From an uncultured bacterium (GTDB lineage: Bacteria; Electryoneota; Electryoneia; Electryoneales; Electryoneaceae): a stretch of DNA of 64,000 nt. Under the pieces are notes generated by a model that was not told the origin of the DNA, made no database searches, and saw only the letters and a list, made by a program, of their open reading frames with translations. Shown piece after piece: positions 10,732 to 49,660 of this stretch. Both the position numbers and the translations under genes were made by a program. Numbering within the stretch: position 1 is the first letter of the stretch; each line of letters opens with the position of its first letter. The stretch is taken from positions 129,832-193,831 of the forward strand of contig CAZIDZ010000003.1 in assembly GCA_964538455.1 (NCBI GenBank), written 5' to 3'.

Positions 10732-11094
10732 GTGGTCAAACCGATTTACCTGCAAGACAATCTCAGCAAGGCGCCGCTCGCCCAGATCTATCAGGACCTG
10801 GAAAATCCGGGCGCCGAACGCCTTCGTGACCTCCATCGGATGATCACGCTCCGCGAGCAGGAGCGCGCCGAGCAGGAGCAGGCGCCGAAAATGGAGGAGC
10901 GCCCGGGGACAGTGGCGATTCACCCGGACGGATCCTCCCGGGGCCGCGGAGGACGGCAACAGACCGCGTCCAAACGCGCAAAAGGCGCGCAGGGCAAAGC
11001 GAAAGCCGGTCCCGGTGAACGTGAAAACGACCTTCGCTTCCGCCGTCCGGATGACGACAAAGGGAAGGGCGATAAACTGGATCTCGAAGGGTAG
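10732..11094 (+). CDS. Hypothetical protein (basic/charged, 120 aa)
   Basis: The ORF starts at GTG directly after fliA and has biased composition. I saw no motif, so it is retained only for its position and length. Confidence 0.3.
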   Translation: MVKPIYLQDNLSKAPLAQIYQDLENPGAERLRDLHRMITLREQERAEQEQAPKMEERPGTVAIHPDGSSRGRGGRQQTASKRAKGAQGKAKAGPGERENDLRFRRPDDDKGKGDKLDLEG

Positions 11095-11098
11095 CCGG

Positions 11099-23800: not shown

Positions 23801-24004
23801 GAGGCGCTGACCCCGTTGCAGCAGTACCTGCAAATTCATCCCGAGGACAACGAGGCTCGTTTCCACTACGCCGCGATCCTGTTCGGCAACCAGGACAACG
23901 CGCACGCGAAAGAAGAAGCGATGAGGGTGCTCCGGGTGAAACCCGATCACCAGGGAGCGCGCGAACTGCTCGACAACCTGTCCCGGAACAGGGATGCATC
24001 CTGA
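20846..24004 (+). CDS. Large multidomain protein: N-terminal helical-repeat region, two GT-A (family 2-like) glycosyltransferase domains, C-terminal TPR repeats
   Basis: The GT2-like cores are VSAVILQNG.. and PLVSVILAGS..DDAVENALIDFCLRAREKDVRVIYEP. The C-terminal TPRs follow WTLLGDSKFRLNKTEDAYDCYKKAVKDDP. Its 10 nt gap to flgL is the basis for the block being co-transcribed with flgKL. Confidence 0.75.
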   Translation: MPDKRDLNRDAAEFASRFTESSPEESSGDSVQNVLILAHAIPTLASIGEKKRATDAALKLLRMRDDRGGWDDPLPTVIALEAFVALRLRGMDLDDGPQAVEYAVRFLRDSRPLELLEHELRLARSLVLAGLARQDAALIDAGLLRARSALEKEPRWSRDLDIALHGLLAVADLVTITKDSTTEQLISRLLAEHHLDQPEPEGIEAQSVAVLARAGTVLEKLGRRDAAVAMYKRAVESADAASLDTASLKFRVELGVRIFGEPGDQGGAGEIPAGGEQPDQTEQQTAELKPVRYDELPAEATFNRSSVSAVILQNGPAESVIQTLEDLAAQTELPEQIVILWTSPSSRAQLPDLPTDLAEIHGAFGWGESPWRLAFQVARADWVWMIPSGVRILPDTLMALKQSGGRKQAICLSKKEGGLDKAFAGLVAEPTLAAERCLIRRDVAAHLRTPRANGSFWDIAASVGEREDWREVVENGEVGIQPVEQGLESLLAAVHSLAGHYRLFPVDGPEQRKLRHDSAARLRDELYRACQEWEQPLVSVILAGSTSGGSLEKSFSSLLRNTQEIPFEVIAILPAGVDLSLRNAMLDAGVLIVPGSEIPTADLNRAAAKAKGQMLVILEAGSEPEEGWLQAMMAAAFDEPNAGIVGGLVQSPAMTILHAGIAFDDRANPIYLHQGAPLVLSHIHRRRAYQAVGGGIVLASRPLWELLRGLDEGFDDAVENALIDFCLRAREKDVRVIYEPKAKATHHVSQPSAPEANRHFIKKWRDRVVPDVELYARMDGYRAESRERRIVLVPIGPTLKANGEEAMSSSSTSTPSHVIKADSSDNDLASLLTRAETLMRDGRYDIAEEALVQGQHQVNGNVGARVIYWTLLGDSKFRLNKTEDAYDCYKKAVKDDPSAERAWIGIATYHLVKGELEKAEDIFRRVISLNDSSTRGYLGLGNVYLRRGQPGDALPSFVEASRLDPGYRPTVVGLVAAAVQAEQMQEALTPLQQYLQIHPEDNEARFHYAAILFGNQDNAHAKEEAMRVLRVKPDHQGARELLDNLSRNRDAS

Positions 24005-24031
24005 CCGCCTGTCTTGCGAAAGGAGGGCAGG

Positions 24032-25474
24032 ATGACAGGCACCCGTAAAATTGGCGTCGTCCAACTCGCCCGGTTCGGCGACCTGGTCCAGACCACACCG
24101 TTCCTCCAGCGACTCCGCGAACAGGAACCGGGTGCCAGTATCTCGATCATCGTTGATCGGCGAGTCGAAGCTGTCGCCAACCTGCTCGATGACGTGGACG
24201 AGGTTATCGGCGTCGATCTCGCCGGGATTCCCGCTCACCTGACCGGGACCATCCTCGCCGATTACGAAAACCTGCGCGCCTGGGTCAAATCCTGGCGGCG
24301 GGATACGGATTACGACCGGCTGATCCTGCTGAACCACGGGGCGATTCCCGAAGCCGTCGCGTCATTTCTCGGAGCTGAACGCCGCGAGGGCCCGGGACGC
24401 GGTTCCGCCTTCGACCGGCCGCACCGCCTGCTTCGGGCCGCTCTCTCAAACAGGGCATTCATTCCGCTCCATCTCAGCGAGGTTTGGGCGGCGTACGGTC
24501 CTCGAAAATTCCCCGTCCCAGCCCCGAAAATAAAGCCCGTAAAGTCCGGCACAACCTTTGCATTTCTAGATGGAAAAGGGCATGTAAGAGATAATAAAAA
24601 CAAGGTATTTGCGGTCAATTTGGGGGCGGGTGCGGCAGGAAGGCGAATGTCCACGGAAAACCTTGCCGCTCTCGTCCGAACGCTGGTCAATGGCAACCCG
24701 TATAGGCTGGTCGCAGTCGGTACGGATGACGACAGGCAAACCGCCGCCCGGCTGATGCAATCCGTACCGCTGAATAATCGCAATCGTGTAATCGATCTTA
24801 CTGGAAATACGACACTTGAACAACTGACGGGCGTGCTCGAGGCGGTGGACGTCCTGATTTCAGCGGACACGGGCACGTTGCAGCTTGCGGCGGCTGCGGG
24901 AACGGCTTCGGTTGGCCTCTTCTTTGCCAACGCCAACCCAATAGAAACAGGAGCTTATTCCCCCGGCGCCGTGGCTGTTGTCCGCCGCGACACCCTGCGT
25001 CCCGGACCGCAGCCGTCGGCCGGCGACATGGTGTTGGCGGCGAAAGTCGCGACCAGGCTGGTTCAGGGGCAACCCTTGGAGGATCTGGAAGATGAAAGCG
25101 ACACCTGTTTTGTGCTGGTGGCCCGATCTGCACCTGTGGGTGTCGAGTACGAACCCCTGCGACCCGGCTCAAAAGGGAATCTGGGGCAGGGCGGACGATG
25201 GCTTCCTCTGCTCAGGCAGTTCCTCTGGGCGGGAGATCGGATCGGCGAGACGGTTCCGGGCAGCCGCAAAGCCTGGACCGATCTCTTCGGTAGTGAGGAC
25301 GCCCTCCGCCTGAGGGATCTTCACGATCAGATCGTGCAGAACGGGGGAAAACAGCTTGAATCGTGGGATGAGGAAACCCGCTGGCTCGCCCACATCGTCG
25401 CGGAGTTTCCCAATGAGACCGCACTCTGGACAGCTCAGATGCTGGCGAGCAAAGCCGGGAGGATTCACGCATGA
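24032..25474 (+). CDS. GT9-family (ADP-heptose heptosyltransferase-like) glycosyltransferase
   Basis: The N-terminus IGVVQLARFGDLVQTTPFLQRL is the RxGDxV hallmark of Glyco_transf_9. There is a Shine-Dalgarno (AAGGAGGG) before ATG 24032. Confidence 0.7.
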   Translation: MTGTRKIGVVQLARFGDLVQTTPFLQRLREQEPGASISIIVDRRVEAVANLLDDVDEVIGVDLAGIPAHLTGTILADYENLRAWVKSWRRDTDYDRLILLNHGAIPEAVASFLGAERREGPGRGSAFDRPHRLLRAALSNRAFIPLHLSEVWAAYGPRKFPVPAPKIKPVKSGTTFAFLDGKGHVRDNKNKVFAVNLGAGAAGRRMSTENLAALVRTLVNGNPYRLVAVGTDDDRQTAARLMQSVPLNNRNRVIDLTGNTTLEQLTGVLEAVDVLISADTGTLQLAAAAGTASVGLFFANANPIETGAYSPGAVAVVRRDTLRPGPQPSAGDMVLAAKVATRLVQGQPLEDLEDESDTCFVLVARSAPVGVEYEPLRPGSKGNLGQGGRWLPLLRQFLWAGDRIGETVPGSRKAWTDLFGSEDALRLRDLHDQIVQNGGKQLESWDEETRWLAHIVAEFPNETALWTAQMLASKAGRIHA

Positions 25475-25776
25475 GTGAAATGAACCTGGACACGGAGGTG
25501 GCGGCTGCTGCGGAAAGCAGCCTCGGCCGTCCAGACAGCGGTGTGAGACGTGTGACGACGACCCCGTGGGCCGTGTTCGTCCACGCCTCGCCGGTCTACA
25601 TCACGAGCGATCAACCGTCCCGTCCTCGCCGTGGGCGTCCCGCGTCCCATCGAAATGTCGCGCACAATCGCCGCGGGATGCGGTTGCCCGATGATTACCC
25701 CTACGCGAATCGCCGTTGGAGCGAACGACTCCGTGTGCTGCGCGCGGTTCGTCACGATGCGGGAGAACTGTCATGA
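25471..25776 (+). CDS. Possible small basic protein, translationally coupled on both ends
   Basis: Its ATG overlaps the upstream stop (ATGA), and its TGA overlaps the downstream ATG (ATGA). It is Arg/Pro-rich with no motif, so it could instead be a frame artefact in a 300 bp spacer. Confidence 0.25.
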   Translation: MSEMNLDTEVAAAAESSLGRPDSGVRRVTTTPWAVFVHASPVYITSDQPSRPRRGRPASHRNVAHNRRGMRLPDDYPYANRRWSERLRVLRAVRHDAGELS

Positions 25777-27392
25777 ATCTGCTGGCGCTCAACGACACGT
25801 TTTTCGGCGATTCGCTCAACCGCCGCGACCTCTCCATCCTCCGCGTGGGTCCGGGACCCGATAACGACATCGTCATCGATCCCGGGGAAGAGGATCTTCG
25901 CGACGTGCTCGAACGTGCCGGATTCCGTCCCGATAGAATCCTGCAGGTCGACAGCATCGACGAGCGCGTTTTCTTCAAGGGACTCGACGAAATCGAAGCA
26001 CCGCGTGCGTTCTACGCCATTGACGGCCCGATCAACGGGTTCTGGCAGCTTCCCTGGGCGCACAACTTCGACCGCGTCTGGATCGATCAGAAGGATTCTT
26101 TCGACCGTATGGCGGAGAACGGGATCGCCTGGGCAGAATGGCTGCCGCTCGCGGCGGATGAGAATTTGTATCACCCCCCAACGCCTGCCGCAGAGCGCGA
26201 CCTCGACGTCGTCTTCGTGGGAACCGTCGATCCGGAGCGCCGTCCGAAACGGTCCGCGATTCTCTACCGGCTCGAACAAGTGGCGAACCTGACCGTCGTC
26301 AACGGCGACGGCAAGCGTTCCGTCCCCGCCGGGGAGGTTGCGGATATCTACCGCCGCGCGAAACTCGTCGTCAACGAACTGCTCTTCGACGGCGTCAACC
26401 TGCGCACCTTTGAAGCAATGGCCTGTGGTGCGGTGGTGATGACAGAGGAGAATCGTGGCGAGCAGGATCTCTTCGCGGATCTTGGCGCGCTGCAGACCTA
26501 CAACGCGAAAAACCTGGAGACCGTCGTCGCCCGTTTGCTCGCCGATCCCCGCGAACGGACGCGCATTTCCGAGAGTGGGGCCGAGGTCATTCGTGAAAGC
26601 CATCTTGTCGCGCACAGGGCGCGCAACCTGCTCAACCAGTTGGACGAGCTGAAACCTCGCCCCGGACGTGACACCGTTCCTTCGAAAATGCACGCGATGT
26701 GGGGCGTTTGGCAGGCCGGGCTCAAGTGGCAGACATTCAGGTCCACCGCGAAACAGGCGCAGGAGTACCTCGCCGCGCACCTCAACGATATCCCGATCGA
26801 CCGGAAGATCGAGCTGTTCGAAGCGACAGGAAACGGTCCGCAGGCGATGCACCTCCTTTTCGACCAATTCAAGGAAAACCGCCTCCCGGATCGGATGCTG
26901 CCGGTGCTCGCCTCCCTCGCCTTGGCGCAGGGCAGCAACGACCTGGCGGGGGATGTGCTCGGCGTGAAAAACGCCACCGCCTCCGACCTGCATGTCGCGA
27001 TCGCCAACCGTCTGCTTCATGGCGGCAGGGACCTCTCGCCCGGATTCAATCGCACCGCCGGACCGGTCAGCGCCTGGAACGCCTTCGAACATTACCAGCA
27101 CGCGTTCACCTTGGACGAGGAAAATCTCGCCGCCCTGGAAGGCATGGACAGGATTCTGGAGAAGCACAACGCATCGGAAATCTCCATGCCGCTCTGGCAG
27201 AAGTGGCACGCTCGCCATCCGCGTGATCCCGAGGCCATCCGCCGCTTCATCAACCGGGCGCGCAACGGCTATTTCAACGTGCCCACGGAATCGCTCGAAG
27301 GGAGGGGTGCGGAATACCCTTTTTCGGCAGTGTCGGCGCGTTCAACCGACCGGACGCCGTCCAGTGGCCAATCCGCAAGGAGTCGAGCGTGA
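25773..27392 (+). CDS. CgeB/DUF3880-like glycosyltransferase domain protein with helical C-terminal region
   Basis: VVFVGTVDPERRP...NLRTFEAMACGAVVMTE...SHLVAHRARNLL matches the Glyco_trans_1_2 (CgeB) pattern. There is a Shine-Dalgarno (GGAGA) before ATG 25773. Confidence 0.65.
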   Translation: MNLLALNDTFFGDSLNRRDLSILRVGPGPDNDIVIDPGEEDLRDVLERAGFRPDRILQVDSIDERVFFKGLDEIEAPRAFYAIDGPINGFWQLPWAHNFDRVWIDQKDSFDRMAENGIAWAEWLPLAADENLYHPPTPAAERDLDVVFVGTVDPERRPKRSAILYRLEQVANLTVVNGDGKRSVPAGEVADIYRRAKLVVNELLFDGVNLRTFEAMACGAVVMTEENRGEQDLFADLGALQTYNAKNLETVVARLLADPRERTRISESGAEVIRESHLVAHRARNLLNQLDELKPRPGRDTVPSKMHAMWGVWQAGLKWQTFRSTAKQAQEYLAAHLNDIPIDRKIELFEATGNGPQAMHLLFDQFKENRLPDRMLPVLASLALAQGSNDLAGDVLGVKNATASDLHVAIANRLLHGGRDLSPGFNRTAGPVSAWNAFEHYQHAFTLDEENLAALEGMDRILEKHNASEISMPLWQKWHARHPRDPEAIRRFINRARNGYFNVPTESLEGRGAEYPFSAVSARSTDRTPSSGQSARSRA

Positions 27393-29236
27393 ACGGATCT
27401 GACGGCATCCTTGAAAGAAACCTCGCTGTGTTGCGCAAACGCGGGCAGGGTGATCTGGCGAACGCCCTGGCCGCTTTGCCCGTCTCTGAAAGGGTACAGG
27501 CGTCTATCGCGCGCTCGGGCGATCCTACGTTGAAAGTCAACGGTCAAAACATTCACAGCCCCTACGATCCGAAACGGGAGGCGGCGGCGCTCGCGGAAAA
27601 ACTGCTCGGCGGCATCGATCCGGCGAAACCGGTTCTGTTCGTCGGGGGTGGCTGCGGCTACGTCCTGGAGCAGGGAAAAGACTGCCTGCAAAACACGCAG
27701 ATCGTCCTTGCCGAACCGGTTCCCGAGGTTCTCGCCGCGGCCATCCGTTCGCGTGATATGAGCGAAATCTTCTCCCTTGCCAACCTCGCTTTCGGCGATT
27801 CGATCCCCTCGCTTGCGGACAATATCCGCTCGCTGCTTGGGGACCGCGCCGAGCAGGCTCAGGTCGTCGTTCTTCCTTCGGCACGATCGTCGGCTCCCCG
27901 AGAGGTGGACGCCCTGCTGAGCGCGCTTTCCACGAAAACGGGAAACGCCGACCTCGGAAACCTGCGCATCCTGCTCGTTGGACCTGTGTACGGGGGCAGT
28001 CTTCCGGTCACCCGGTATGTGCACAGCGCGCTGAAAAAGCTCGGCCACACCGTCGAATGGCTCGATTTCTCTCCGCTTCATGAAAGCGTACGGTTTTTCG
28101 ACGGTATCACTCGGAAGCAGGAGCACCGCAAGGCGTTGCAGGGGCAGTACACCCACCTGATGGCTCAGACCGTCCTTGCGCGCGCTGAGCTCTTTCAGCC
28201 ACAGATCGTCTTTTTCATGGCGCAATCCCCCGGCGCTCCGAATGTCCTGGAGGAGCTGCGCAATGCGGGGATCCCGACCGCTTTCTGGTTCGTCGAGGAC
28301 GGCAAGCTCTTCGATTACGGCATGAAGATGGCTCCCTATTATGACGTTTTCTTCCACATCCAGGGGGCTTCCTTTACCGAACAATTGAAGCAGGCCGGAG
28401 CCCGCCATGTCCATTACCTCCCGCTCGCCGCCGACCCGGACGTTCACAAACCGCTGCAGCTGACCGATGACGAACAGGCCGAATACGGCAGCGACATCAG
28501 CCACGTCGGCGCCGGGTACCCCAACCGCCGCAGATTCTTCCCCTCGCTGCTCGACTTCAACTTCAAGCTCTGGGGCAGCGACTGGGAGCAGCCCGGTCCG
28601 TTGGGCAAGGTGCTGCAGCGCGGGGGCGAACGGATCTCCACCGAGGATACCGTGAAAATCTTCAACGCGTCGAAGGTGAACCTCAACCTGCACTCCTCGA
28701 CTTTCACCGACGGCGTGAACCCGGACGGCGATTTCGTCAATCCGAGAACCTTCGAATTGGCCGCCTGCGGAGCGTTCCAGCTCGTCGACGAACGCAGCCT
28801 GCTTCCTTCGCTGTTCAGCGTGGATAGCGAGATGGTCACGTTCCTCGGTGTCTGGGACTGTCGAGAGAAAATCGCCCATTACCTGGAGCACCCGGAAGAG
28901 GCGAAAGCGATCGCCGACGCCGCGAGGAACAGGGTGTTGCAGCAGCATACCTATGCCCATCGGATGCAGGAAGCGCTCTCGGTGATCGCGGCGGCCTGCC
29001 CCATCCCTGAAAACCGGGTGATGCGGAACACGGTGGCTTCGCTGGTCGCACAGGCGGGGAAAAACCGCGAACTCGCGGAAATCTTCGGACAGATGGGGCA
29101 GCCGGAGGACGAGTTGACGTTGTCGGAGATCGCGGATACGATCCGCCACGGACAGGGCAAAATGAATGAGAGCGAAGCGCTGCTGCTGCTGATGGATGAA
29201 TTCCACACGTGGGCGAAGGAAAAGGGAGTCGCATGA
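27389..29236 (+). CDS. Fusion protein: N-terminal Maf/DUF115-like (motility accessory factor-like) domain + C-terminal CgeB-like glycosyltransferase domain
   Basis: The N-terminus has KPVLFVGGGCGYVLEQ (DUF115-like Gly-rich loop). The C-terminus has RTFELAACGAFQLVDE...QQHTYAHRMQEAL. The GTG start overlaps the upstream stop. Confidence 0.6.
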   Translation: MNGSDGILERNLAVLRKRGQGDLANALAALPVSERVQASIARSGDPTLKVNGQNIHSPYDPKREAAALAEKLLGGIDPAKPVLFVGGGCGYVLEQGKDCLQNTQIVLAEPVPEVLAAAIRSRDMSEIFSLANLAFGDSIPSLADNIRSLLGDRAEQAQVVVLPSARSSAPREVDALLSALSTKTGNADLGNLRILLVGPVYGGSLPVTRYVHSALKKLGHTVEWLDFSPLHESVRFFDGITRKQEHRKALQGQYTHLMAQTVLARAELFQPQIVFFMAQSPGAPNVLEELRNAGIPTAFWFVEDGKLFDYGMKMAPYYDVFFHIQGASFTEQLKQAGARHVHYLPLAADPDVHKPLQLTDDEQAEYGSDISHVGAGYPNRRRFFPSLLDFNFKLWGSDWEQPGPLGKVLQRGGERISTEDTVKIFNASKVNLNLHSSTFTDGVNPDGDFVNPRTFELAACGAFQLVDERSLLPSLFSVDSEMVTFLGVWDCREKIAHYLEHPEEAKAIADAARNRVLQQHTYAHRMQEALSVIAAACPIPENRVMRNTVASLVAQAGKNRELAEIFGQMGQPEDELTLSEIADTIRHGQGKMNESEALLLLMDEFHTWAKEKGVA

Positions 29237-30810
29237 ACGTGCTCCTGATCAATCTGGCGCGCATCGGGGATCTCGTGCAGGTGTCGCCTGTTTCCCAGGG
29301 CCTCATGGATGAGCTGGGAGCGCGGGTGACGTTGCTCGCCCCGGAGAAGTACGCGGAGTTCGCGCGCCGACTGTCAGGAGTCGACGAAGTCATCGGCGTG
29401 GATGATTCAGACCTCAATCGTGAAGGTATCGTCCTGTCGTCGCTGATACACTCCGATCCGAAGCTGAGTCAGGCGATCGCAGACCTGCGAGCGCATTCCT
29501 TCGACCTCGCGATCAACCTTACCCACGATGAGCTCTCCACCGCGCTGGCGAGCGCGATCGGGGCGAAAGCTGTGCGCGGCCGTTTCGGACAACCCGGACA
29601 TATCCAGGTGAGGGGGGATGCCTTCCGCTATTTCTACACCGTGCTCGAGCATCGCATGATGAACGGCATCAACCTTTGCGACATCTACCGGATCGGCGCG
29701 GGAATCGCCAACGGCCGCCGTCCGGTCTCGATGGCGCCTGTGCCAGAGGATCGGCGGGCAATACGCGATCGAATCGGCGAAACATCAAGGCCCGTGATCC
29801 TGCTGCACCCCGGCGCAAACCATCCTCACCGCAGGTGGCCGGTGTCGAAGTACGGAGCGCTGGCGAAGATGCTGCACGCGGAGGGCGCGGAGGTGCTCGT
29901 GCTCGCCGGTCCGGCCGAGCGTGATCTCGCTGGCGCTGTCGTGCGTTTATCCAACGGTTCTGCGCGCGCGATGGATAAACCCGTACCTGTTGAACTGCTG
30001 CCCGCGCTGTTTGCGGAGGTAAACCTCGTCGTCACCAACGACACCGGTCCGCTCCACATCGCCGCGTCTGTCGGCACGCCAACCGTGTCGCTGTTCCTCG
30101 CCATGGCGCGCCCCCAGGACACAGGCCCCTGTTCGCCCGAACATCTGATCCTGGAGACGCTCGAAAGCTGTCATCCCTGCCCGGAGCACAGCGCATGCGA
30201 TTCTCCCGTGTGTGGTGATTCGATCCCGGTAGAGGTGGTGTTCGCCGCCGTCCGGGCGAGATTGTGCGAATCGTTTCCCGCTGAATACGTCTTCAAACCC
30301 TTCGGCGGACGCTTCCGGGCGCTCGTCACTCGCTGGGGCGCGAACGGGATGATCGAGCTCGAAGAAATCTACCGTTCCGTTCCCATACCGGATGGCTTCG
30401 ATGTCGGCTCCGCATGGAAACCGGTCTGGCTCTCGCTGTTCGCGGGGGATAGCCCTTCCGGGGAGGTGTTGAAACAGCTCCGGGGGACTTTCAGCATCTC
30501 GGAGCAGCGATCGATGCTCGCGGTGGTCACCCTCTGCCGGGGAATTCTCGCTCGTCTAAACGGGGAACCGCTGCAGGACGAACAAGGCAATCCGCTCAGC
30601 GTGGCCGTGCTCGAGGATTTCGCTCTTCAGGAGGAGCAGCGTTCGCAATCGGCGAAAACCCTGCTGCTGCCCTTCCGGTTGGAGCGCGAAGCGCTCTACG
30701 CCCGGGGGATCGATGCCGTGCGAAACGAAGCGGAGAGCCGCTTTTCCCGCTGGATCGGCACCCTCGCCGCGCTCAGCCCGGACGCTGTCCGGGAGGAGGT
30801 GGCGGCATGA
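29233..30810 (+). CDS. GT9-family heptosyltransferase-like protein with Cys4 cluster
   Basis: MNVLLINLARIGDLVQVSPV and TNDTGPLHIAASVGTPTVSLF are GT9 motifs. The Cys cluster is CHPCPEHSACDSPVC. The ATGA overlaps the upstream gene. Confidence 0.7.
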   Translation: MNVLLINLARIGDLVQVSPVSQGLMDELGARVTLLAPEKYAEFARRLSGVDEVIGVDDSDLNREGIVLSSLIHSDPKLSQAIADLRAHSFDLAINLTHDELSTALASAIGAKAVRGRFGQPGHIQVRGDAFRYFYTVLEHRMMNGINLCDIYRIGAGIANGRRPVSMAPVPEDRRAIRDRIGETSRPVILLHPGANHPHRRWPVSKYGALAKMLHAEGAEVLVLAGPAERDLAGAVVRLSNGSARAMDKPVPVELLPALFAEVNLVVTNDTGPLHIAASVGTPTVSLFLAMARPQDTGPCSPEHLILETLESCHPCPEHSACDSPVCGDSIPVEVVFAAVRARLCESFPAEYVFKPFGGRFRALVTRWGANGMIELEEIYRSVPIPDGFDVGSAWKPVWLSLFAGDSPSGEVLKQLRGTFSISEQRSMLAVVTLCRGILARLNGEPLQDEQGNPLSVAVLEDFALQEEQRSQSAKTLLLPFRLEREALYARGIDAVRNEAESRFSRWIGTLAALSPDAVREEVAA

Positions 30811-33761
30811 AGCGGCCCGTCGCGATCCTCAACATGACACGCATGGGCGACCTGTTGATGACCGGTCCGATGCTGCACCGTCTCCGCGAACAGTGGCCCG
30901 GGCACCCTCTCCACCTGATCGCGGTGGACGGATTTATGCCGATCGCGCAGGGAATGGACGTCGACAGGGTAATCTCACTCGATTACGACAGGTTGACCAC
31001 GCTGGCGGTGTCCGCGGGTGAAGCACGCCGCGTCAACCTGATCGACGCACTCGGCGAATTCCGTGACGTGATTCGCGAACTGCAATCCGTTGACTACGAG
31101 GCGATTTACAATGTCAGCCACACGCGGATCAGCGCGATCATTGCGACCCTGCTTAACGGCGAGGTTCGCGGGGGCCTGCACCTCGACAGCCAAGGGTTCA
31201 GGGTCATCGCGGGACGTTGGGCTCGCAACTGGTTCGCAGGGAATCTCAATCGCGGAGTGAACCCCTTCCACCTCGTCGACATGAACATCGGAATCGCCGG
31301 CGGCGGCGTCTTTCCGGCCGATCAACGGAAGCTTCATTACCACGTTCCCGGCGACGCGCGTGAGGAAGCCGCGTCCATCCTGGAATCCTTAGGGATCGGC
31401 GATCAAACTCCGTTCATCGTTGTCCAGGTGGGGGCCTCGACGGAGGATAAACGTTGGGAGCCGGAAAAATTCGGCCAGGCCGCGGCTCAGATTCTCAAGG
31501 CTGCCGGTGTGCGCCCGGTCTTCGTCGGCACGCACTCCGAACGCGAATGGGCCGGGACCGCCGCCCGGATCGTGGGCGGTGAGGCGGCCGTGCTAGCGGG
31601 GCAGACCACGCTTCCCGTGTTGGCGGCTGTGCTCGAGCGCAGTTCGCTGCTGGTCACCAACGATACGGGCACGATGCACCTCGCTCAGGCGGTGGGCACC
31701 CGCTCGCTCGACATTACCCTCGGCGCGGCGCTCTCGGACGAGACCGGCCCCTACGGAAGCGGAAGCGTGATCCTCGAACCCGACATTGCCTGCTTCCCCT
31801 GCGATTTCAACGCCGTTTGCCCGCATCACAACTGCCACGGCTTGATCACCCCGGATCTGGTCGCGAGCGTTGCCTGCGCCATGCTCGAAGGCCAGCCACT
31901 CGAGCAGGTGATCGGCCGCCTCGATACCCGCGGCGCCCACATCTGGGTAACCGGATTCGACGCCGATGGATGGTGGAGAAAGTATCCGCTCGCGGAAAAA
32001 ACGCTGCAAGCGAAGGACGTGATCCGTGAATGCTACCGGGAAATTCTGAAAGCGGATCTCGAGCCGGACCTGCGTCCAAACGGGGTCGATTCGCAGGCGG
32101 TGTTGCAGTCCCTGGGGTCATACGACTCGGCCAGTGCAGACAGTACTGCCGCGCTGCAGCCGGACACTGAACTTGGAACCGAACTGCTCGCTCTGATACG
32201 CAGGGCCGCCGGCTTGGCTGAACGCATCGTGCGAATTTCCCCGGACGAACCCGGGGCCGTGGAAAAGCTGGCTGATTACGGGCAGGAACTGGCGCAGCTC
32301 GACGAAAGCATTCTCCAGTCGTTCCTGCACAGCACGCTCTGGGCGCCCGTGTTGGCGCTGTTCCGCTTCGATCTCGAAAACCTGCCGGAAGACGGTCTTG
32401 AGGCACAGTCCCGGCGTACTCTCGAGTTGCACGAACGGCTTGAAACCCTTGTTCAGTCCCTGCTGAGCCTCCTCGCTGACGTGGCGCGGTCTGTCCCGTC
32501 GAACGGTTCACACGGACGGGGCCGCGACCGCGTAATTACGAAGACGGGAACAGCTCACGACAGCTACGACAGCTTCCGACGGCCGCGAATGCGCGGCGAG
32601 CGGCTGAACATCGTGCTCCCGACCAGCGGCTACTATTTGCAGCAGGAGATCGCGACGGCGTTGACACGACTCGGCCACCGCGTCCACCCGTTGCCGTTCG
32701 CCGGCAGGGAGGACGTCATCGAGCGGCTGTTGCTGCTCAGCCGCGACGCGGATCTGCTCGTCACCGTCAATCACCTCGGATTCGATCAGTTCGGCGAACT
32801 CGCGCATCTGCTGGATCGCATCGAACTGCCCTACATCTCCTGGTACGTTGACCGGCCCGCGTTCATCCTGCTCGATCACGCCATCGGTCCCGCGGAGAAC
32901 GCCCTGATCGCCACCTGGGAGCAGTCGACGATCGAGGAGATCCGGTCCTACGGATTCGAAAACGTGGTCTATCTGCCGCTGGCGACCGACGAAAAACGTT
33001 TTTCGCCCAAGACAGGCCAGTTTGACCCCGGTACGCCTCACTGGGTGGCGAATTCGATGGTTTTGCCGAGCCGCGAATGGCAGGAAAAAGCCTCCCTGTA
33101 CGACGGCGATCCCCTGCTCCAGAGAGCGGTTGCCTTGCAGCGGGCGGGGCGCCTTGAACCGGAGGCGGTGCTCGCGGCGGCGGCTTCGGCGGAAGGCGTT
33201 GAGCTTGACGACTGGGACAAACGCAGGAAATTGAACGCGGCGTCGGCGATTGCCCTGACCGCAACGCGCCAGTTGCGCCGCGATCTTGCCAGCGAAACTG
33301 CACCGCTGGGACTGCAGCTTCACGGGGATCAGGGGTGGGGCGAAATCGCACCCCGGGCGGCGCTCAACCCCCCGGTGGAATACCCCAGGGGCTTGGTCGA
33401 GGCCTATCGCAATTCGTTGCAGCTGAACGCCACCAGCTACCAGATGCCCACCGCCGTCAACCAGCGGGTGTTTGACGTTCCCGCGGCCGGCGGGGTGCTT
33501 GTCACCGATGCCCAGGAGGCGCTCGGCGAACTCTTCGATCATGAGACGGAATGTATTGTTTATACGGAACCTGGTGAAATCGCCGAGAGCATTCGTTGGG
33601 TGCGCAAAAACCCTCAGGATGCGCAGCGGCGGTCGATCCGGGCACGTCAGCGGATACTCAACGAACACACATACACGCACAGAATGCGAATGCTGCTTGA
33701 ACGGGCTCGCCTGCACGGAGTTCACGCTTCTGTGTCTACAGCGGGAGGAGCGGTACGATGA
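30807..33761 (+). CDS. Fusion protein: N-terminal GT9 heptosyltransferase-like domain (with Cys cluster) + C-terminal CgeB-like glycosyltransferase domain
   Basis: VAILNMTRMGDLLMTGPMLHRL and TNDTGTMHLAQAVGTRSL are GT9 motifs. The Cys cluster is CFPCDFNAVCPHHNC. The C-terminus has QRVFDVPAAGGVLVTD...NEHTYTHRMRMLLE. Confidence 0.7.
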   Translation: MKRPVAILNMTRMGDLLMTGPMLHRLREQWPGHPLHLIAVDGFMPIAQGMDVDRVISLDYDRLTTLAVSAGEARRVNLIDALGEFRDVIRELQSVDYEAIYNVSHTRISAIIATLLNGEVRGGLHLDSQGFRVIAGRWARNWFAGNLNRGVNPFHLVDMNIGIAGGGVFPADQRKLHYHVPGDAREEAASILESLGIGDQTPFIVVQVGASTEDKRWEPEKFGQAAAQILKAAGVRPVFVGTHSEREWAGTAARIVGGEAAVLAGQTTLPVLAAVLERSSLLVTNDTGTMHLAQAVGTRSLDITLGAALSDETGPYGSGSVILEPDIACFPCDFNAVCPHHNCHGLITPDLVASVACAMLEGQPLEQVIGRLDTRGAHIWVTGFDADGWWRKYPLAEKTLQAKDVIRECYREILKADLEPDLRPNGVDSQAVLQSLGSYDSASADSTAALQPDTELGTELLALIRRAAGLAERIVRISPDEPGAVEKLADYGQELAQLDESILQSFLHSTLWAPVLALFRFDLENLPEDGLEAQSRRTLELHERLETLVQSLLSLLADVARSVPSNGSHGRGRDRVITKTGTAHDSYDSFRRPRMRGERLNIVLPTSGYYLQQEIATALTRLGHRVHPLPFAGREDVIERLLLLSRDADLLVTVNHLGFDQFGELAHLLDRIELPYISWYVDRPAFILLDHAIGPAENALIATWEQSTIEEIRSYGFENVVYLPLATDEKRFSPKTGQFDPGTPHWVANSMVLPSREWQEKASLYDGDPLLQRAVALQRAGRLEPEAVLAAAASAEGVELDDWDKRRKLNAASAIALTATRQLRRDLASETAPLGLQLHGDQGWGEIAPRAALNPPVEYPRGLVEAYRNSLQLNATSYQMPTAVNQRVFDVPAAGGVLVTDAQEALGELFDHETECIVYTEPGEIAESIRWVRKNPQDAQRRSIRARQRILNEHTYTHRMRMLLERARLHGVHASVSTAGGAVR

Positions 33762-34366
33762 ATGTGATTGTGGATGGCAAACCGGTCGAGCTGCCTGCGG
33801 AGGGGCAGAAGACGATCGGCGACGTCGTCGGGTCCGTGTCCAAGGATCTGGACGCGAAACGGCGGATCATCAAGGTGGTCGTCGACGGCCAGGACATCAC
33901 CGGTCAGGCGGAGGCCCATCTGCAGAGCAGGAGCGGCGGCGAAAAGGTCGAGATCACGACGGGCCTGGCCAGCGAACTGGCGCTCGAAACTCTGGACGGG
34001 ATCCGGGATTTCCACGGTGCGCTCGAGTTGGAGTTGAACCGCACCGCGGACGAATTCCGGATGGGTAACAACCAGAAATCCAACGAGATGTTCGCCCGCT
34101 GCCTGGATGGATTGCAGATCCTGCTGCGCACAACGGTTTCCGTCGCCAACCTGCTGCAGGTCGACAGCGCCAAGGTGAAAGCGGGATCCGGCAACATGAA
34201 TGCGGTCACCGAAAACATCGCCCGCGTCCTCCAGGAGTTGATCGAGGCGCAGATCAATCGGGATGCGATTCTGATCGCCGATCTGATCGAGTACGAACTT
34301 AAACCTCTGTTGGACGATTGGCAGGACGCCCGAGAACAGCTCCGGCTGATCGGAAAGGCGGCCTGA
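33758..34366 (+). CDS. Hypothetical protein (beta-rich N-terminus + helical C-terminus), last-but-one gene before flagellin promoter
   Basis: The ATGA overlaps the upstream gene. I saw no known motif. Confidence 0.5.
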   Translation: MNVIVDGKPVELPAEGQKTIGDVVGSVSKDLDAKRRIIKVVVDGQDITGQAEAHLQSRSGGEKVEITTGLASELALETLDGIRDFHGALELELNRTADEFRMGNNQKSNEMFARCLDGLQILLRTTVSVANLLQVDSAKVKAGSGNMNAVTENIARVLQELIEAQINRDAILIADLIEYELKPLLDDWQDAREQLRLIGKAA

Positions 34367-34779
34367 TGCTGCGCGACGCCCCACAGGACAACGAGCAGAT
34401 TCTGAGGGAATTGCTTTCCGTCACGGAAGATACCGTGGCGGCGGCGAGGATCGATCACCGTTCAGCGCTGGATCCGCTGCTCGATCGACGCGGGAAGCTG
34501 CTCGCGGTGTTTTGGGGTTTCCCTCCCGATCAGCCGCTGCCGCTGTTCGACGACAGCAGGGTGGGGAGCACTCCGCCAAGCCTTTCAGGAAGCGAAAAAC
34601 GGCTGTTGAAACGCGTTATATCTTTGGATAACAAAGTCTTAAAGTATCTGAACGCCAACAGGGAACGGCTCTTGAACGAGTTTCATTCCCTGCGGCGTGG
34701 CGAACGGGCGATCTCCGGCCTTCGCGATCTCCTGCGAGATGGCAGAACGGGGGGAAAAAGGGTAGACATGAGAGGGTAA
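34366..34779 (+). CDS. Hypothetical helical protein (possible flagellin-associated chaperone/regulator)
   Basis: The TGATG overlaps the upstream gene. It is a 137-aa helical protein with no family recognised. Confidence 0.45.
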   Translation: MLRDAPQDNEQILRELLSVTEDTVAAARIDHRSALDPLLDRRGKLLAVFWGFPPDQPLPLFDDSRVGSTPPSLSGSEKRLLKRVISLDNKVLKYLNANRERLLNEFHSLRRGERAISGLRDLLRDGRTGGKRVDMRG

Positions 34780-34890: not shown

Positions 34891-34917
34891 CAAGGTTTAC
34901 TCCTGGCCTGCCGATAG
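34891..34917 (+). promoter_or_regulatory. Sigma-28 (FliA) class III promoter for flagellin
   Basis: cAAgGTTT-N11-GCCGATAg compares with TAAAGTTT-N11-GCCGATAA. It is followed by the Shine-Dalgarno AAGGAGG 8 nt before the fliC ATG. Confidence 0.6.
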
Positions 34918-34967: not shown

Positions 34968-35801
34968 ATGAGTACTCGCATCAACCACAACATCCTCGCA
35001 CTCACCGCCCAAAGGAATATCTACCGAACCCAGACAGATTTGGACCGCACTCTCACGCGGCTCTCCTCGGGTTTGCGGATCAACTATTCCTGGGACGACC
35101 CCGCGGGGTTGGCGGTGAGCGAGAGATTCCGTGCCCAAATCGCCTCAATGGTCGAAGCGGAACGGAACGCAAATTACGACGTCAACCTGCTGGCGACTGC
35201 AGAAGGGTCGTTGCAGACCATTGACAACACACTGACGCGTATGCGCGCGCTGGCGATCCAGGCGTCCAACGGCGCCCTGGCATCCCAGGATCGGGCTTCG
35301 CTGGACGAGGAATTCCAGCAGCTCGCTTCAGAGATCACGCGTATCGCGCACACAACCAATTACAACGGTCTTTACCTGCTGAGTGGGGACTATTCCACGG
35401 CTGGAATCAAGTTCCACATCGGCACGTACAACGTGAGTGGGCAGGATTACTACTACGTCACGTTGAACGACATGAGCGCCAGCGCGCTCGGGTTGACTGG
35501 CCTGAATCTGTTGAACACTGTCAGCGCCCAGAACTCGATCGCTTCGCTGGATGCGGCAATCAACACCAAGGATACTGAGCGGACACGCATCGGTTCGCAG
35601 GTTTCTCGTCTGCAGAACACGATCACGAACCTGCAAGTCGCCAAGGAAAATGCGTCTTCGTCCGAGTCGACCATCCGTGACGCGGATATCGCCGAAGAGA
35701 TGAGTGCTTTCGTGCGATCCCAGTTGCTGATGCAGACTGGCATCTCGATGCTTTCCCAGGCGAACATGGTGCCGCAAATCGTTGCGGGTTTGGTCGGGTA
35801 A
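34968..35801 (+). CDS. fliC: Flagellin
   Basis: The N-terminus MSTRINHNILALTAQRNIYRTQTDLDRTLTRLSSGLRINYSWDDPAGLAVSERF and the C-terminus AFVRSQLLMQTGISMLSQANMVPQIVAGLV are flagellin-like. At 277 aa the variable D2/D3 domain is minimal. Confidence 0.9.
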   Translation: MSTRINHNILALTAQRNIYRTQTDLDRTLTRLSSGLRINYSWDDPAGLAVSERFRAQIASMVEAERNANYDVNLLATAEGSLQTIDNTLTRMRALAIQASNGALASQDRASLDEEFQQLASEITRIAHTTNYNGLYLLSGDYSTAGIKFHIGTYNVSGQDYYYVTLNDMSASALGLTGLNLLNTVSAQNSIASLDAAINTKDTERTRIGSQVSRLQNTITNLQVAKENASSSESTIRDADIAEEMSAFVRSQLLMQTGISMLSQANMVPQIVAGLVG

Positions 35802-35863: not shown

Positions 35864-35918
35864 GACACCCATGGAAGGCGCAGGTTCAGGGTGAGTTGCG
35901 CCTCCATGGGTGTTTTCT
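35864..35918 (+). terminator. Rho-independent terminator after fliC
   Basis: GACACCCATGGAAGGCGCA...TGCGCCTCCATGGGTGT forms a long GC stem followed by TTTTCTGT. Confidence 0.6.
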
Positions 35919-35984
35919 GTGAGGCCATCCCGATCGTTGCAGGTCGCTGACCCCGTCATGCCACGTGCATCCGGCGGAGGAGTC

Positions 35985-37634
35985 ATGGCTTCACCAACTA
36001 CAGTTAGCGGAATCTCGTCCGGCATTGACTGGCAGGCTACTGTCGATGCCCTGATGCAGATCGAGTATCAGAAAGTGCAGATACTCGACGACCGAAAATC
36101 CGCTTTCGAAAGCAAAAAGACAGCCTGGTCCAGCATCCAAACCAAGCTGCAGACGTTGAAATCCACGTCTGACGACATGGACAAACTCAATGAGGTCCTG
36201 CTCAAACAGGCAACCAGCTCGAATACGGATGCGATTACTGTCAGCGCCAAGGCGAGTGCGGTGGAAGCCACGCACACCGTTGTTGTCAATCAGCTCGCCA
36301 AAAACGAAGTCCTGGTGCACAGCGCCGGTTGGGCGGACGCTTATTCCACCTCGCTGACGACCGCCGGCAACGACTTCGTTTACACGTTTGACGGGACGGA
36401 CTATACAATCACGCTGTCGAATGGATCGACAATCGCGGACCTCGTCGCTGCAATCAACGAAGATACGGATAACCCGGGAGTGACTGCGTCGTTTATTGAT
36501 GATGGCGGAAGCAGTGATCCCGTGCACCTTGTGCTCGCTGCCGATGATCCGTCCGCGGCTTCGGTGCTCTCGATCAACGATGCCGGAACAACGATCGGAG
36601 CGACCGCGGCCGACTTCGATACGGCAAACTGGACGCAGACGCAGGCGCCCCAGGAAGCGCAAATCCGTGTCGACGGGTATCCTCCGGCCTCCTGGATCAC
36701 GCGCACGACGAATACCATTGACGACGTGATCTCCGGGGTGACACTCAATCTCAAGGCCGTCGATGCCTCCGGCACAACGATCACAATCGCAAACGATTCC
36801 GATGCAATCAAATCGAAAATTCAGGGGTGGGTGGACGCGTACAACGACGTCGTCCAGACGATCAATGACTTTTCCTCCTATGATTCGGAAAACGAGATTC
36901 GTGGTGTCCTGATGGACGACAGCCAGGCACGGCTCGTGCGCGATCAGCTGATCTCCGCGGTCACGTCGGAGATCGCGGATCTGCCGGCGGACTCCGCCTA
37001 CACCACGCTCGGTTCAATCGGGGTCGACATCGGCGCCGGCGGACTGCTCACCGTTGACAGTTCCCAGCTCGATGATGCGCTCGCGGATAAGGCGGATGAA
37101 GTCGCAAGTGTTTTCGCGTTCACATCGTCCACGTCGAACTCGACCCTGGAATATCAGTCGTCAAGACCCGAAACTCAGGGCGGCACCTACGACGTTTTCG
37201 CAACCTACACGGCGGCGGGGGTGCTCGATAAAAACGGTACGAATACGATCGGGGGATACGCCGCCACCGTGGAAGGCACCAACATTTTGCGGGGCAAGAA
37301 CGGTACACCCGTTGAAGGATTGAGAATCTGGTTTAACAGTCCCGGAACCGGATCGCCTGGCACGGCGAGCGCCACAATACGCGTCGGGAACGGGCTCTCT
37401 ATCGTCGCCAGTGACCAGGTGGAGCAACTCACTGATTCCGTGGACGGGTTGATCAAGTTGGTCCAGGACAGCTACTCCGAGCAGATCTCGAACCTCGAGG
37501 ACCAGATGGCCGCGTACCAGACACGGCTGGATCAGAAGAAACAGATGCTGACGAATCAGTTCATTGCGATGGAAAAGGCCGTTTCACAAGCCAAGAACCA
37601 GGCGAATTGGGCATCGAGCGCCCTGTCGTCATGA
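35985..37634 (+). CDS. fliD: Flagellar filament cap protein FliD
   Basis: The N-terminus ISGISSGIDWQATVDALMQIEYQKVQ is FliD-like, and the C-terminal coiled coil is LTNQFIAMEKAVSQ. There is a Shine-Dalgarno (GGAGGAG) before ATG 35985. Confidence 0.8.
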   Translation: MASPTTVSGISSGIDWQATVDALMQIEYQKVQILDDRKSAFESKKTAWSSIQTKLQTLKSTSDDMDKLNEVLLKQATSSNTDAITVSAKASAVEATHTVVVNQLAKNEVLVHSAGWADAYSTSLTTAGNDFVYTFDGTDYTITLSNGSTIADLVAAINEDTDNPGVTASFIDDGGSSDPVHLVLAADDPSAASVLSINDAGTTIGATAADFDTANWTQTQAPQEAQIRVDGYPPASWITRTTNTIDDVISGVTLNLKAVDASGTTITIANDSDAIKSKIQGWVDAYNDVVQTINDFSSYDSENEIRGVLMDDSQARLVRDQLISAVTSEIADLPADSAYTTLGSIGVDIGAGGLLTVDSSQLDDALADKADEVASVFAFTSSTSNSTLEYQSSRPETQGGTYDVFATYTAAGVLDKNGTNTIGGYAATVEGTNILRGKNGTPVEGLRIWFNSPGTGSPGTASATIRVGNGLSIVASDQVEQLTDSVDGLIKLVQDSYSEQISNLEDQMAAYQTRLDQKKQMLTNQFIAMEKAVSQAKNQANWASSALSS

Positions 37635-37703
37635 TAGACTGAGTCATACCACCGCCCTTGACGGCGGTGTTCAAGGCCGAGTACACTTGAAGAGGTGTGT
37701 GCC

Positions 37704-38084
37704 ATGCCTGTGCTGAATCCGTACAAGCAGTACGACGACGTCACCTTCGGAACGGCGCATCCGCTGTCGCTGGTCATCTCGACCTATGACGCTGCGATCC
37801 GCTCGCTGAAGGAGGTAATCCGCAGCCTCAAGTCGAACGACGTTGAAAATCGCGTCAAAAACGTCGACCTTTCTTTTGAGTTGATCAGCGAACTGCGGAA
37901 GTCGCTGGATCCGGAAAAAGGCGGCGACATTGCCGAAAAACTGAGCTCGCTGTACGAGTTCTTTATCCGCGAGATCACCGTGGCGAACGCGTATCAGGAT
38001 GCCGACCGCCTCGAACCGGTGATCAAAATATTGCAGGAGTTGCGCGACTCCTGGGTTGAGGTGCGCAGGCAGGTGAAATCCTGA
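37704..38084 (+). CDS. fliS: Flagellin-specific chaperone FliS
   Basis: NPYKQY...TAHPLSLVISTYDAAIRSLKEV...LYEFFIREI is the FliS pattern. Confidence 0.85.
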   Translation: MPVLNPYKQYDDVTFGTAHPLSLVISTYDAAIRSLKEVIRSLKSNDVENRVKNVDLSFELISELRKSLDPEKGGDIAEKLSSLYEFFIREITVANAYQDADRLEPVIKILQELRDSWVEVRRQVKS

Positions 38085-46628: not shown

Positions 46629-46790
46629 GTTCTACCCTCGCTTCCCGGGTTCATACCCCGAAGACGCCGGAATTGATGACAGTTGGTGCACAGGATACAC
46701 GGTCAATCCTACTCTGCTCACGGAAAAGGGCTGATCTTGAATTCGGAATAGACTCTGCAAAGCCAGCGAATTTTGAGACGTACAAGGATG

Positions 46791-48257: not shown

Positions 48258-48266
48258 TGGCGCAAT

Positions 48267-49490: not shown

Positions 49491-49660
49491 TCCAATTACG
49501 AGGATAAGCTGTCGTTGTGATCCTATCTTTCATCCAGCTTGCAAAGGTAAACCTTGCCCCTGCTGGACGCAAGGTATACTTTTGCTGCTGCCGCCGGGAG
49601 TATGCTGTTTAGGTTATTGATATTAAAGCGTATTAAGAGTGCATTTGAACGGACACGCCG

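Follow-up and report, generated by a model that had tools for sequence, protein, structure and literature searches.

A conserved block of GT9- and CgeB-like glycosyltransferase genes in the flagellar locus of an uncultured Electryoneota bacterium, a probable flagellin glycosylation island

A stretch of 64,000 nucleotides from an uncultured bacterium of the family Electryoneaceae (GTDB phylum Electryoneota; assembly GCA_964538455.1, contig CAZIDZ010000003.1, positions 129,832 to 193,831 of the forward strand), hereafter the window, carries a flagellar gene cluster that is interrupted, just before the flagellin gene fliC, by an island of nine genes and ~13.9 kb. The island encodes about eight glycosyltransferase (GT) domains and includes three proteins of glycosyltransferase family 9 (GT9), which we name GT9a, GT9b and GT9c. 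We consider it probable that the block is an undescribed cytoplasmic flagellin glycosylation island, in which flagellin is O-glycosylated by an undescribed set of enzymes. The flagellar linkage of these genes is the robust part of the finding; it is old and real. Because the linkage is kept across phyla, the genes are best read as serving glycosylation of the flagellum, and since the block sits between the hook-junction genes and the flagellin gene, the GT9 proteins probably decorate the filament.

All genes of the block lie on the + strand. Its upstream edge is flgL (19819..20835, +), which encodes the hook-filament junction protein (Pfam Flagellin_N) and keeps this position in orthologous loci. 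The first block gene (20846..24004, +) encodes a 1052-aa tetratricopeptide repeat (TPR) protein, a candidate flagellin-binding glycosyltransferase with Pfam TPR matches in its C-terminal part and a sub-threshold match to Glycos_transf_2. It is followed by GT9a (486 aa; 24014..25474, +), by a conserved small open reading frame (ORF) of 101 aa (25471..25776, +), at the equivalent place of which orthologous loci have genes of 99-115 aa, and by a CgeB-like (PF13524) GT-B glycosyltransferase of ~538 aa (25776..27392, +; Glyco_trans_1_2, 72 bits), whose longest ORF runs from 25716 and whose orthologues measure 535-539 aa. Next come a 615-aa glycosyltransferase with Maf_N-like, DUF3880 and CgeB-like regions (27389..29236, +; PF13524, 134 bits; DUF3880, 54 bits), GT9b (525 aa; 29233..30810, +) and GT9c (984 aa; 30807..33761, +), a fusion of GT9, DUF3880 and CgeB-like domains. 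The block closes with a 202-aa protein of the DUF8042/TP0873_N family (33758..34366, +), assigned from precomputed Pfam families on its orthologues, and a small FliT-like protein (34318..34779, +), a putative flagellar export chaperone whose Pfam FliT match (E = 0.0027) is below the cut-off and recurs weakly in orthologues. The GT9b ORF can be read from 29209 or 29233; nine orthologues begin at the equivalent of ATG 29233 (MNVLL...). Consecutive genes are joined by several 4-nt overlaps and one 10-nt gap, and the block therefore reads as a single operon with flgK-flgL. A scan of the block for sigma-70 promoters and terminators gave a result no better than chance, and an Rfam scan of the window returned zero RNA families. 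The preliminary description of this DNA had seen three GT9-like proteins in a flagellar operon, one of them fused to a CgeB-like domain. Both points hold for the interval from flgL to fliC, with GT9a lying outside the part (29233..33761) that it had covered and the fusion in GT9c including DUF3880 as well.

The arrangement is conserved far beyond the window. On contigs that carry GT9b orthologues (39-67% identity), the whole cassette from flgK to dnaJ-trkH is unchanged in order. For more distant relatives, one genome per species was scanned and the window proteins were then compared with the loci found by tblastn. In many Nitrospirota, and in Deltaproteobacteria/Thermodesulfobacteriota, Calditrichota and Fibrobacterota, a ~600-aa DUF3880/CgeB enzyme followed by a GT9 of 520-600 aa adjoins fliC-(flaG)-fliD-fliS or flgK-flgL. 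The N-terminal part of GT9c is 32-35% identical to these flagellar GT9s of Nitrospirota, Deltaproteobacteria, Calditrichota and Fibrobacterota, and the counterpart of GT9a in Nitrospira is a second, Cys-less GT9 of 411 aa encoded upstream; GT9b is limited to the lineage of the window. Hydrogenedentes-type contigs have an operon of fliW, csrA, a DUF8042 gene, a CgeB + methyltransferase gene, a CgeB-like gene and a GT9 gene, and in one Thermodesulfobacteriota metagenome-assembled genome (MAG) the island lies away from fliC and ends with DUF8042 and FliT-like genes. In loci L007 and L017 the GT9c-type gene has a single other GT beside it. An apparently unfused GT9c of 553 aa (P0121) was rejected, its sequence being cut by the end of a contig.

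A crude neighbour-joining (NJ) tree separates the GT9s of flagellar loci from 109 generic GT9s in 56/60 bootstraps; within it GT9b forms a clade in 54/60, the GT9a type, including the 411-aa Nitrospira genes, in 42/60 and the GT9c type in 17/60. The preliminary description had placed the genes in a flagellar operon rather than an LPS-core (lipopolysaccharide-core) locus, and had named grouping with LPS-core enzymes beside waa genes as the outcome that would speak for the latter. The flagellar setting is strengthened by the synteny across phyla; the flagellar GT9s form a clade of their own and no waa neighbours were found.

The three proteins score 93.8 (GT9b), 73.5 (GT9c) and 47.8 bits (GT9a) on the GT9 family model of Pfam (PF01075; cut-off 22). 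In GT9b the GT9 domain covers residues 1-345 and is followed by a C-terminal extension (346-525) made of a beta-hairpin and helices. GT9c consists of a GT9c-type domain (~1-345), a linker region, DUF3880 (678-735) and a CgeB-like PF13524 domain (832-964), and the ORF lengths (959-1024 aa) and precomputed Pfam families of its orthologues show that the fusion is retained. Invariant across nine GT9b orthologues are the N-terminal G12-D13, the R-R-W-P segment and T-N-D-T-G-P-L-H, which line up in the alignment with G12-D13 (the catalytic base), K192 and D261-H266 of WaaC. Both GT9b and GT9c keep the Gly-Asp catalytic motif and the D-T-G-x-x-H donor motif. GT9a retains G-D and the D-T-G core; its donor motif is degenerate (ADTGTLQ, Q replacing H), it has R-R-M-S instead of K-R-W-P, and there is a single Cys in the whole protein.

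In the AlphaFold model of GT9b (pLDDT 87.6, pTM 0.87), residues 2 to ~345 form a GT-B domain, after which come the beta-hairpin and a helical bundle; the model is nearest to solved GT9 structures. Structure comparison scores are 32.1 for 3TOV (a Veillonella GT9), 29.8 for WaaF, 27.7 for WaaC, 23.0 for PnsB1, a GT9-like subunit of chloroplast NDH, and 18.7 for TibC (257 residues aligned, 10% identity). TibC and AAH, the bacterial autotransporter heptosyltransferases (BAHT), are the enzymes to which the preliminary description had likened GT9b and GT9c; the superposition thus puts the GT9b model nearer to 3TOV, WaaF and WaaC than to TibC. Foldseek ranks 3TOV, WaaF and WaaC at the top and TibC outside the top 50, and a profile of GT9b orthologues searched against the PDB matches the same three and no TibC even at E <= 10. 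By BLASTP, GT9b matches WaaF at 1e-12 and GT9c matches WaaF at 1e-6 and WaaC at 5e-6; against TibC, GT9c gives 0.089 and GT9b no match.

On sequence criteria, GT9a, GT9b and GT9c are members of GT9 that are neither equivalogs of the LPS heptosyltransferases I, II and III (HepI/II/III) nor members of BAHT, because they score below the NCBIfam cut-offs of the former and do not match the model of the latter. The models for LPS heptosyltransferases I/II/III (TIGR02193, TIGR02195, TIGR02201) give the three GT9s 39-68 bits, the best scores being 68.0, 62.7 and 62.0 at cut-offs of 185.3, 134.6 and 170.2; E. coli WaaC, used as a control, reaches 433.5 bits. The flagellar GT9s of Nitrospira and delta-proteobacteria are also under these cut-offs. 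None of the three matches TIGR04414 (BAHT; cut-off 200 bits) at E <= 0.01, a model on which the control, TibC of enterotoxigenic E. coli (ETEC) H10407, scores 613.5 bits. TibC and AAH form a dodecameric ring and are further marked by an iron finger, a thumb made of a beta-hairpin and an N-terminal beta-barrel, which spans residues 1-97 in TibC (PMC4358343). No such barrel precedes the catalytic domain in the GT9b model, whose first Rossmann strand starts at residue 2, and both GT9b and GT9c align to WaaC from residue 1. In the alignment TibC is without the D-T-G motif that GT9b and GT9c keep. ETEC tibC directly adjoins tibA, and no autotransporter family turned up when the window was scanned with Pfam. 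By sequence and by the GT9b model, which is of a monomer, the positions of the cysteines are the one TibC/AAH trait seen in the window GT9s, and membership of BAHT is rejected.

Set beside WaaC, WaaF and 3TOV, the window GT9s have in common the G-D, K/R-R-W-P and D-[ST]-G-x-x-H motifs and, with many non-enterobacterial members, a four-cysteine (Cys4) knuckle. They differ in the extra C-terminal beta-hairpin and helical domain or the DUF3880/CgeB fusion, in their place in a flagellar operon without waa or ADP-heptose neighbours, in their separate clade and in scores far below the equivalog cut-offs. With BAHT they share four Cys in homologous columns and a presumed cytoplasmic action on a secreted protein before its export; they differ in having no TIGR04414 match, no beta-barrel (in the GT9b model) and no autotransporter neighbour, in the short spacing of their Cys and in keeping D-T-G.

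The cysteines had been the chief reason for the comparison with TibC. GT9b (CHPCPEHSACDSPVC, residues 313-327; 30169..30213, +) and GT9c (CFPCDFNAVCPHHNC, residues 329-343; 31791..31835, +) do carry a CxxC-x5-C-x4-C cluster, as described, and GT9a has none. When the Cys of each protein are placed at random, the probability that four of them fall inside 15 residues is 0.004 for GT9b and 0.0006 for GT9c. The cluster does not stand immediately after the TNDTG..H segment, as had been stated, but begins 43 residues past the donor-motif Asp. Its value as a BAHT-like sign is also lost, since it is present in HepI and HepII equivalogs, eroded in GT9b orthologues and missing in part of the GT9c-type family. 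For 120 GT9b relatives among the matches listed, we surveyed the 85 residues after D-[ST]-G-x-x-H; 110 had the motif, and 88 of these 110 generic GT9s (~80%) have at least three Cys in the segment, mostly as CxxC-x4-6-C-x3-6-C. Carriers of the cluster include proteins above the curated cut-offs for heptosyltransferase II (P0019, 201 bits; P0028, 192 bits) and heptosyltransferase I (P0012, 200 bits; P0089, 238 bits), with the same short spacing as in GT9b and GT9c. In a joint alignment the Cys columns are common to GT9b, GT9c, the Nitrospira and delta-proteobacterial flagellar GT9s, P0019, P0089 and TibC (L088:3640-4860). C339, C342, C358 and C370 of TibC, its iron-finger cysteines (PMC4358343), stand in these columns with longer inserts between them (CxxC-x15-C-x11-C, that is x15 and x11 against x5 and x4 in GT9b and GT9c). 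The Cys4 knuckle is present in most non-enterobacterial GT9s; it has been lost from WaaC and WaaF of E. coli, which are without the cluster Cys.

Conservation of the cluster among orthologues is uneven. The first Cys is present in 3/8 GT9b orthologues, P0004 and P0005 are left with the last Cys only, and the invariant residues are H314, P315, E318 and C327. All four Cys are intact in the ~25 GT9c-type genes of flagellar loci. In the wider GT9c-type family (E < 1e-30, 520-600 aa) the cluster is present in 55/82 and missing in 27/82; one of the 27 is a truncated sequence, the others have an Arg-rich segment in its place, and at least two of the Cys-less genes lie in the same kind of operon. Because it is common in generic GT9s and LPS equivalogs and has been lost in GT9b orthologues and GT9c-type relatives, the Cys4 cluster is, as far as sequence comparison tells, an ancestral and dispensable GT9 trait that is uninformative on a protein acceptor. 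It is most likely a small structural knuckle, presumably metal-binding, inherited from ordinary GT9s. The literature view of a "unique" iron finger in TibC is corrected by this comparison: the TibC cysteines sit at the positions of the common GT9 Cys4 knuckle.

Orthologues of the 615-aa protein are ~600 aa long, and in several phyla their genes stand immediately upstream of that for a flagellar GT9. Over its first 200 residues this partner is similar to the N-terminal domain of Maf: Maf_flag10_N (PF20157) matches 9/16 orthologues, the best at E = 2.4e-7, and a paralogue (L012:4879-6639) scores 36.3 bits on it against a cut-off of 23.5. The combination of a Maf_N-like region, DUF3880 and a CgeB-type GT-B domain is an architecture not described before. 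When the 615-aa protein was searched against PDB sequences, only chance matches came back. Two block proteins have the DUF3880 + Glyco_trans_1_2 pair and a third has Glyco_trans_1_2 alone. Neither a match to DUF115 nor pse, leg or neu-type genes were found in the island by Pfam.

Orthologues of the 1052-aa protein (1047-1106 aa) consist of a glycosyltransferase family 2 (GT2) region and TPR, and the protein may deliver flagellin as the TPR region of FlmG does, to judge by analogy. At its place upstream of the GT9s, Nitrospira sp. DJ has a 1733-aa protein (L026:1595-6796) with a methyltransferase, three GT2 domains and TPR. The 101-aa ORF overlaps GT9a by 4 nt, is found by tblastn at 46-47% identity in L001 and L004 and has no family match. 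A DUF8042 protein of ~200 aa is the regular companion of the GT9c-type protein, and its gene often follows the GT9c-type gene, delta-proteobacterial loci included; in two loci it lies inside the fliW-csrA operon, directly after fliW-csrA (L092:3284-3910, L094:3263-3889), and in a Desulfoplanes MAG (L093:10751-11341) it is the sole partner of the GT9. The FliT match reaches E = 3e-5 for L012:12333-12689. No membrane segments are predicted in the block proteins (maximum 19-residue Kyte-Doolittle mean <= 1.47), and no flippase, polymerase, exporter or lipid-carrier priming enzyme was found in the block by Pfam. This absence of membrane and lipid-carrier machinery fits protein glycosylation in the cytoplasm before flagellar export.

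The presumed acceptor is the product of fliC (34968..35801, +), a minimal flagellin of 277 aa with Pfam Flagellin_N and Flagellin_C domains. It is followed by fliD and fliS (35910..38084, +; fliD by Pfam, fliS by tblastn and precomputed Pfam in orthologous loci), the downstream edge of the locus. All 21 flagellins encoded beside the module, that of the window and those of 20 related loci, are 272-283 aa long regardless of phylum and have a Ser/Thr-rich central segment; they are essentially the conserved helical domains with this short segment between them. This is the size class of Caulobacter flagellins. The latter are glycosylated by FlmG (PMC7591256). A sigma-28-like promoter, CAAGGTTT-N11-GCCGATAG (34891..34917, +), can be read 50 nt upstream of fliC. 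With 2 mismatches to the consensus of FliA promoters, AAGTTT-N11-GCCGATAA, it ranks among the top two sites of the window; at up to three mismatches the window has 10 matches to that consensus against 2.8 expected. Flagellin would therefore be transcribed separately from the GT operon.

ADP-heptose, the sugar donor assumed in the preliminary description, has no visible source in these loci. With E. coli queries, tblastn found no homologues of gmhA, gmhB, hldE or hldD in the window or within 10 kb of flagellar GT9 loci; it did find gmhB and/or hldE beside ~30 non-flagellar GT9 loci in the same data set. In Nitrospira MAGs (L027, L031, L034-L037, L039, L041, L044, L062), pairs of non-flagellar GT9s flank a gmhB homologue; the arrangement resembles an LPS inner-core locus, and the flagellar GT9s of the genus are encoded in a different one. 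Because gmhB or hldE lies beside their non-flagellar GT9 loci, ADP-heptose is plausibly available in at least the Nitrospira carriers; no link to the flagellar GT9s was seen. The statement that heptosylation had not been reported for flagella is contradicted by FliC of ETEC H10407, which was published in 2016 as heptosylated on Ser/Thr (PMC5000012). Boysen et al. found 14 heptosylated Ser/Thr on this FliC by direct liquid chromatography-tandem mass spectrometry and many more by BEMAP, and did not identify the transferase (PMC5000012).

We propose that GT9a, GT9b and GT9c would be soluble cytoplasmic GT-B enzymes of an island dedicated to the flagellum and co-transcribed with flgK-flgL. The evolutionary core of the island would comprise three proteins: the Maf_N-like/DUF3880/CgeB enzyme, the DUF8042 protein and a GT9 whose C-terminal extension is helical. 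In the window lineage the GT9c-type gene would have been fused to a second DUF3880/CgeB unit and duplicated to give GT9b, and the GT2-TPR protein, GT9a and another CgeB-like enzyme would have been added. The TPR, Maf_N-like or C-terminal helical domains might hold unfolded or chaperone-bound flagellin; one enzyme would then set the first sugar on Ser/Thr in the short exposed segment of the 277-aa flagellin; and the remaining GT domains would lengthen the glycan, after which the protein would be exported by flagellar type III secretion. Inverting transfer with the conserved Asp13 as base is expected of the GT9 domains, and ADP-heptose, the default of the family, is the candidate donor. A bolder and rather improbable extension would make the GT9c-type enzymes, with their C-terminal extension and their pairing with DUF8042 and usually Maf_N/CgeB proteins, a second family of protein O-heptosyltransferases of the cytoplasm, of independent evolutionary origin, that coats minimal flagellins with housekeeping ADP-heptose in Nitrospirota, Thermodesulfobacteriota, Calditrichota, Fibrobacterota, Hydrogenedentota and the window lineage. 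If true, heptose would occur widely on flagella, and GT9 would join the flagellin glycosyltransferases as a new class.

Several points weigh against a flagellin glycosylation island. The glycan, its acceptor and its donor are assigned by association. The 615-aa protein itself stays below the Maf_flag10_N cut-off (16.7 against 23.5 bits; E = 0.005-0.01), and GT9a may be inactive, given its degenerate donor site. Neither here nor in Nitrospira does the island contain nucleotide-sugar synthesis genes, so that the identity of the sugar cannot be read from the context. No flagellin lies within 10 kb of the module copies in L009, L011, L012, L014, L020, L033 and L093. The NJ tree, besides being crude and giving the GT9c type 17/60, draws on a generic set recruited with GT9b as query and biased to GT9b-like sequences.

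Among the alternatives, GT9b and GT9c could be BAHT-like iron-finger enzymes that transfer heptose from ADP-heptose directly to Ser/Thr of flagellin. They belong to GT9 with the catalytic Asp and donor motif intact, their four Cys align with C339, C342, C358 and C370 of TibC, and they are linked to flagellar genes; in the Desulfoplanes locus (DUF8042 only) and in L007 and L017 (one other GT) the GT9 could itself act on the protein, and a heptosylated flagellin exists in ETEC (PMC5000012). We nevertheless find this unlikely: TIGR04414, on which TibC scores 613.5 bits, is not matched, the GT9b model is without the beta-barrel, the spacing of the Cys is x5/x4 rather than x15/x11, D-T-G is absent from TibC and present in the window GT9s, the cluster is common in LPS HepI/II equivalogs and dispensable in the family, and ADP-heptose genes are not linked. 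Far less credible still, and the weakest of the alternatives, is that the GT9s are ordinary LPS-core heptosyltransferases of the WaaC/WaaF/WaaQ kind with incidental flagellar neighbours. Scores of 39-68 bits against cut-offs of 134.6-185.3, with the Nitrospira and delta-proteobacterial flagellar GT9s likewise under them, additional domains of 180-640 residues, flagellar synteny across phyla and a separate clade (56/60) all speak against it, as does the lack of waa or ADP-heptose neighbours when non-flagellar GT9 loci do have gmhB and hldE. It would explain why WaaF, WaaC and 3TOV are the top matches in sequence and fold and why relatives are named 'ADP-heptose:LPS heptosyltransferase' in source databases.

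The island might instead build a flagellum-associated glycan on another acceptor, such as FliD, the hook or a junction protein, a sheath or matrix polysaccharide or a small molecule. About eight GT domains are many for a simple flagellin O-glycan, some module copies lie away from fliC, and flagellin is the acceptor by presumption. We regard this as quite unlikely, since the block has no membrane-embedded GT, flippase, polymerase or exporter and no predicted transmembrane segments, its companions are flagellin-specific (fliW-csrA, the FliT-like protein, the Maf_N-like domain) and the flagellins are uniformly minimal and Ser/Thr-rich. One or more GT9 paralogues, GT9a foremost, could be a catalytically dead scaffold like PnsB1 that organises a multi-enzyme complex. 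The DTGTLQ of GT9a in place of DTGxxH, its R-R-M-S in place of K-R-W-P and its lack of a Cys cluster are what one would expect of such a protein, but it keeps G-D and the D-T-G core and its type is conserved from the window lineage to Nitrospira, and GT9b and GT9c keep every motif; the scaffold role seems very improbable. A flagellin glycosylation island remains the reading we favour.

Components of the island resemble parts of several known systems. CgeB and YkvP (PF13524, PF12996) are glycosyltransferases of spore-crust maturation in Bacillus subtilis; they have the DUF3880 and Glyco_trans_1_2 domains of the block proteins, which differ in being fused to a Maf_N-like region or GT9 and in lying in a flagellar operon, with no sporulation context. 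Like Maf (motility accessory factor), the flagellin glycosyltransferase of Campylobacter, Helicobacter, Aeromonas and Magnetospirillum, the 615-aa protein is encoded beside flagellin genes and has a Maf_flag10_N-like N-terminus. Unlike in Maf, the DUF115 catalytic domain is replaced by DUF3880 and a CgeB-type GT-B, the island is without genes for pseudaminic or legionaminic acid synthesis, and a GT9 is the obligatory neighbour. The TPR region of FlmG binds flagellin and can bring small flagellins to the GT domain (PMC7591256). Compared with FlmG by architecture, the 1052-aa protein likewise unites TPR and GT regions (the GT2 match being weak and sub-cut-off) and is found with a small flagellin (277 against ~275 aa); its order is reversed, with the GT N-terminal and the TPR C-terminal, its GT is of the GT2 type as opposed to the GT-B of FlmG, and its gene lies in a block that encodes about eight GT domains, whereas FlmG is a single enzyme. 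Full-text literature searches found no paper on GT9 or CgeB-like enzymes in flagellar glycosylation, none on the set of GT9, Maf_N-CgeB and DUF8042 proteins, and nothing relevant on flagellin glycosylation in Nitrospira.

The block is embedded in a long flagellar cluster. By Pfam, the + strand upstream carries fliR, flhB, flhA, flhF, flhG, fliA and a TPR protein gene and, nearer the block, flgF, flgG, flgA, flgH, flgI, flgJ, flgN, flgK and flgL. The presence of FlgH and FlgI (L- and P-rings) implies an outer membrane. Between fliA and flgF, a 599-aa protein (11015-12814) has weak TPR matches and a C-terminal end like DUF6115/DUF2802. On the other side of the block lies a surface-polysaccharide locus (44080-51178) with Bac_transf, GT2, Wzy_C-like, Wzz/GNVR and Polysacc_synt_3 genes; its Bac_transf, Wzy and Wzz genes are on the opposite strand, ~10 kb from the GT block. 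At 46-50 kb the G+C content drops to 0.46-0.50 from ~0.61, suggesting that this stretch was acquired horizontally.

Flagellin glycosylation is known mainly in pathogens, through Maf, FlmG/Fgt-type and GmaR-type enzymes, and the known flagellin sugars are nonulosonic acids, rhamnose-based glycans and N-acetylglucosamine. Here a different enzyme set, of GT9, Maf_N-like/CgeB and DUF8042 proteins, recurs by the flagellin genes of environmental phyla, including the nitrite oxidiser Nitrospira. If its role is confirmed, these would be new families of flagellin glycosyltransferases, and a function would be found for the GT9 and CgeB-like genes of flagellar loci that are now labelled 'LPS heptosyltransferase' or 'spore maturation protein'. 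Confirmation would also tie very small flagellins to heavy glycosylation.

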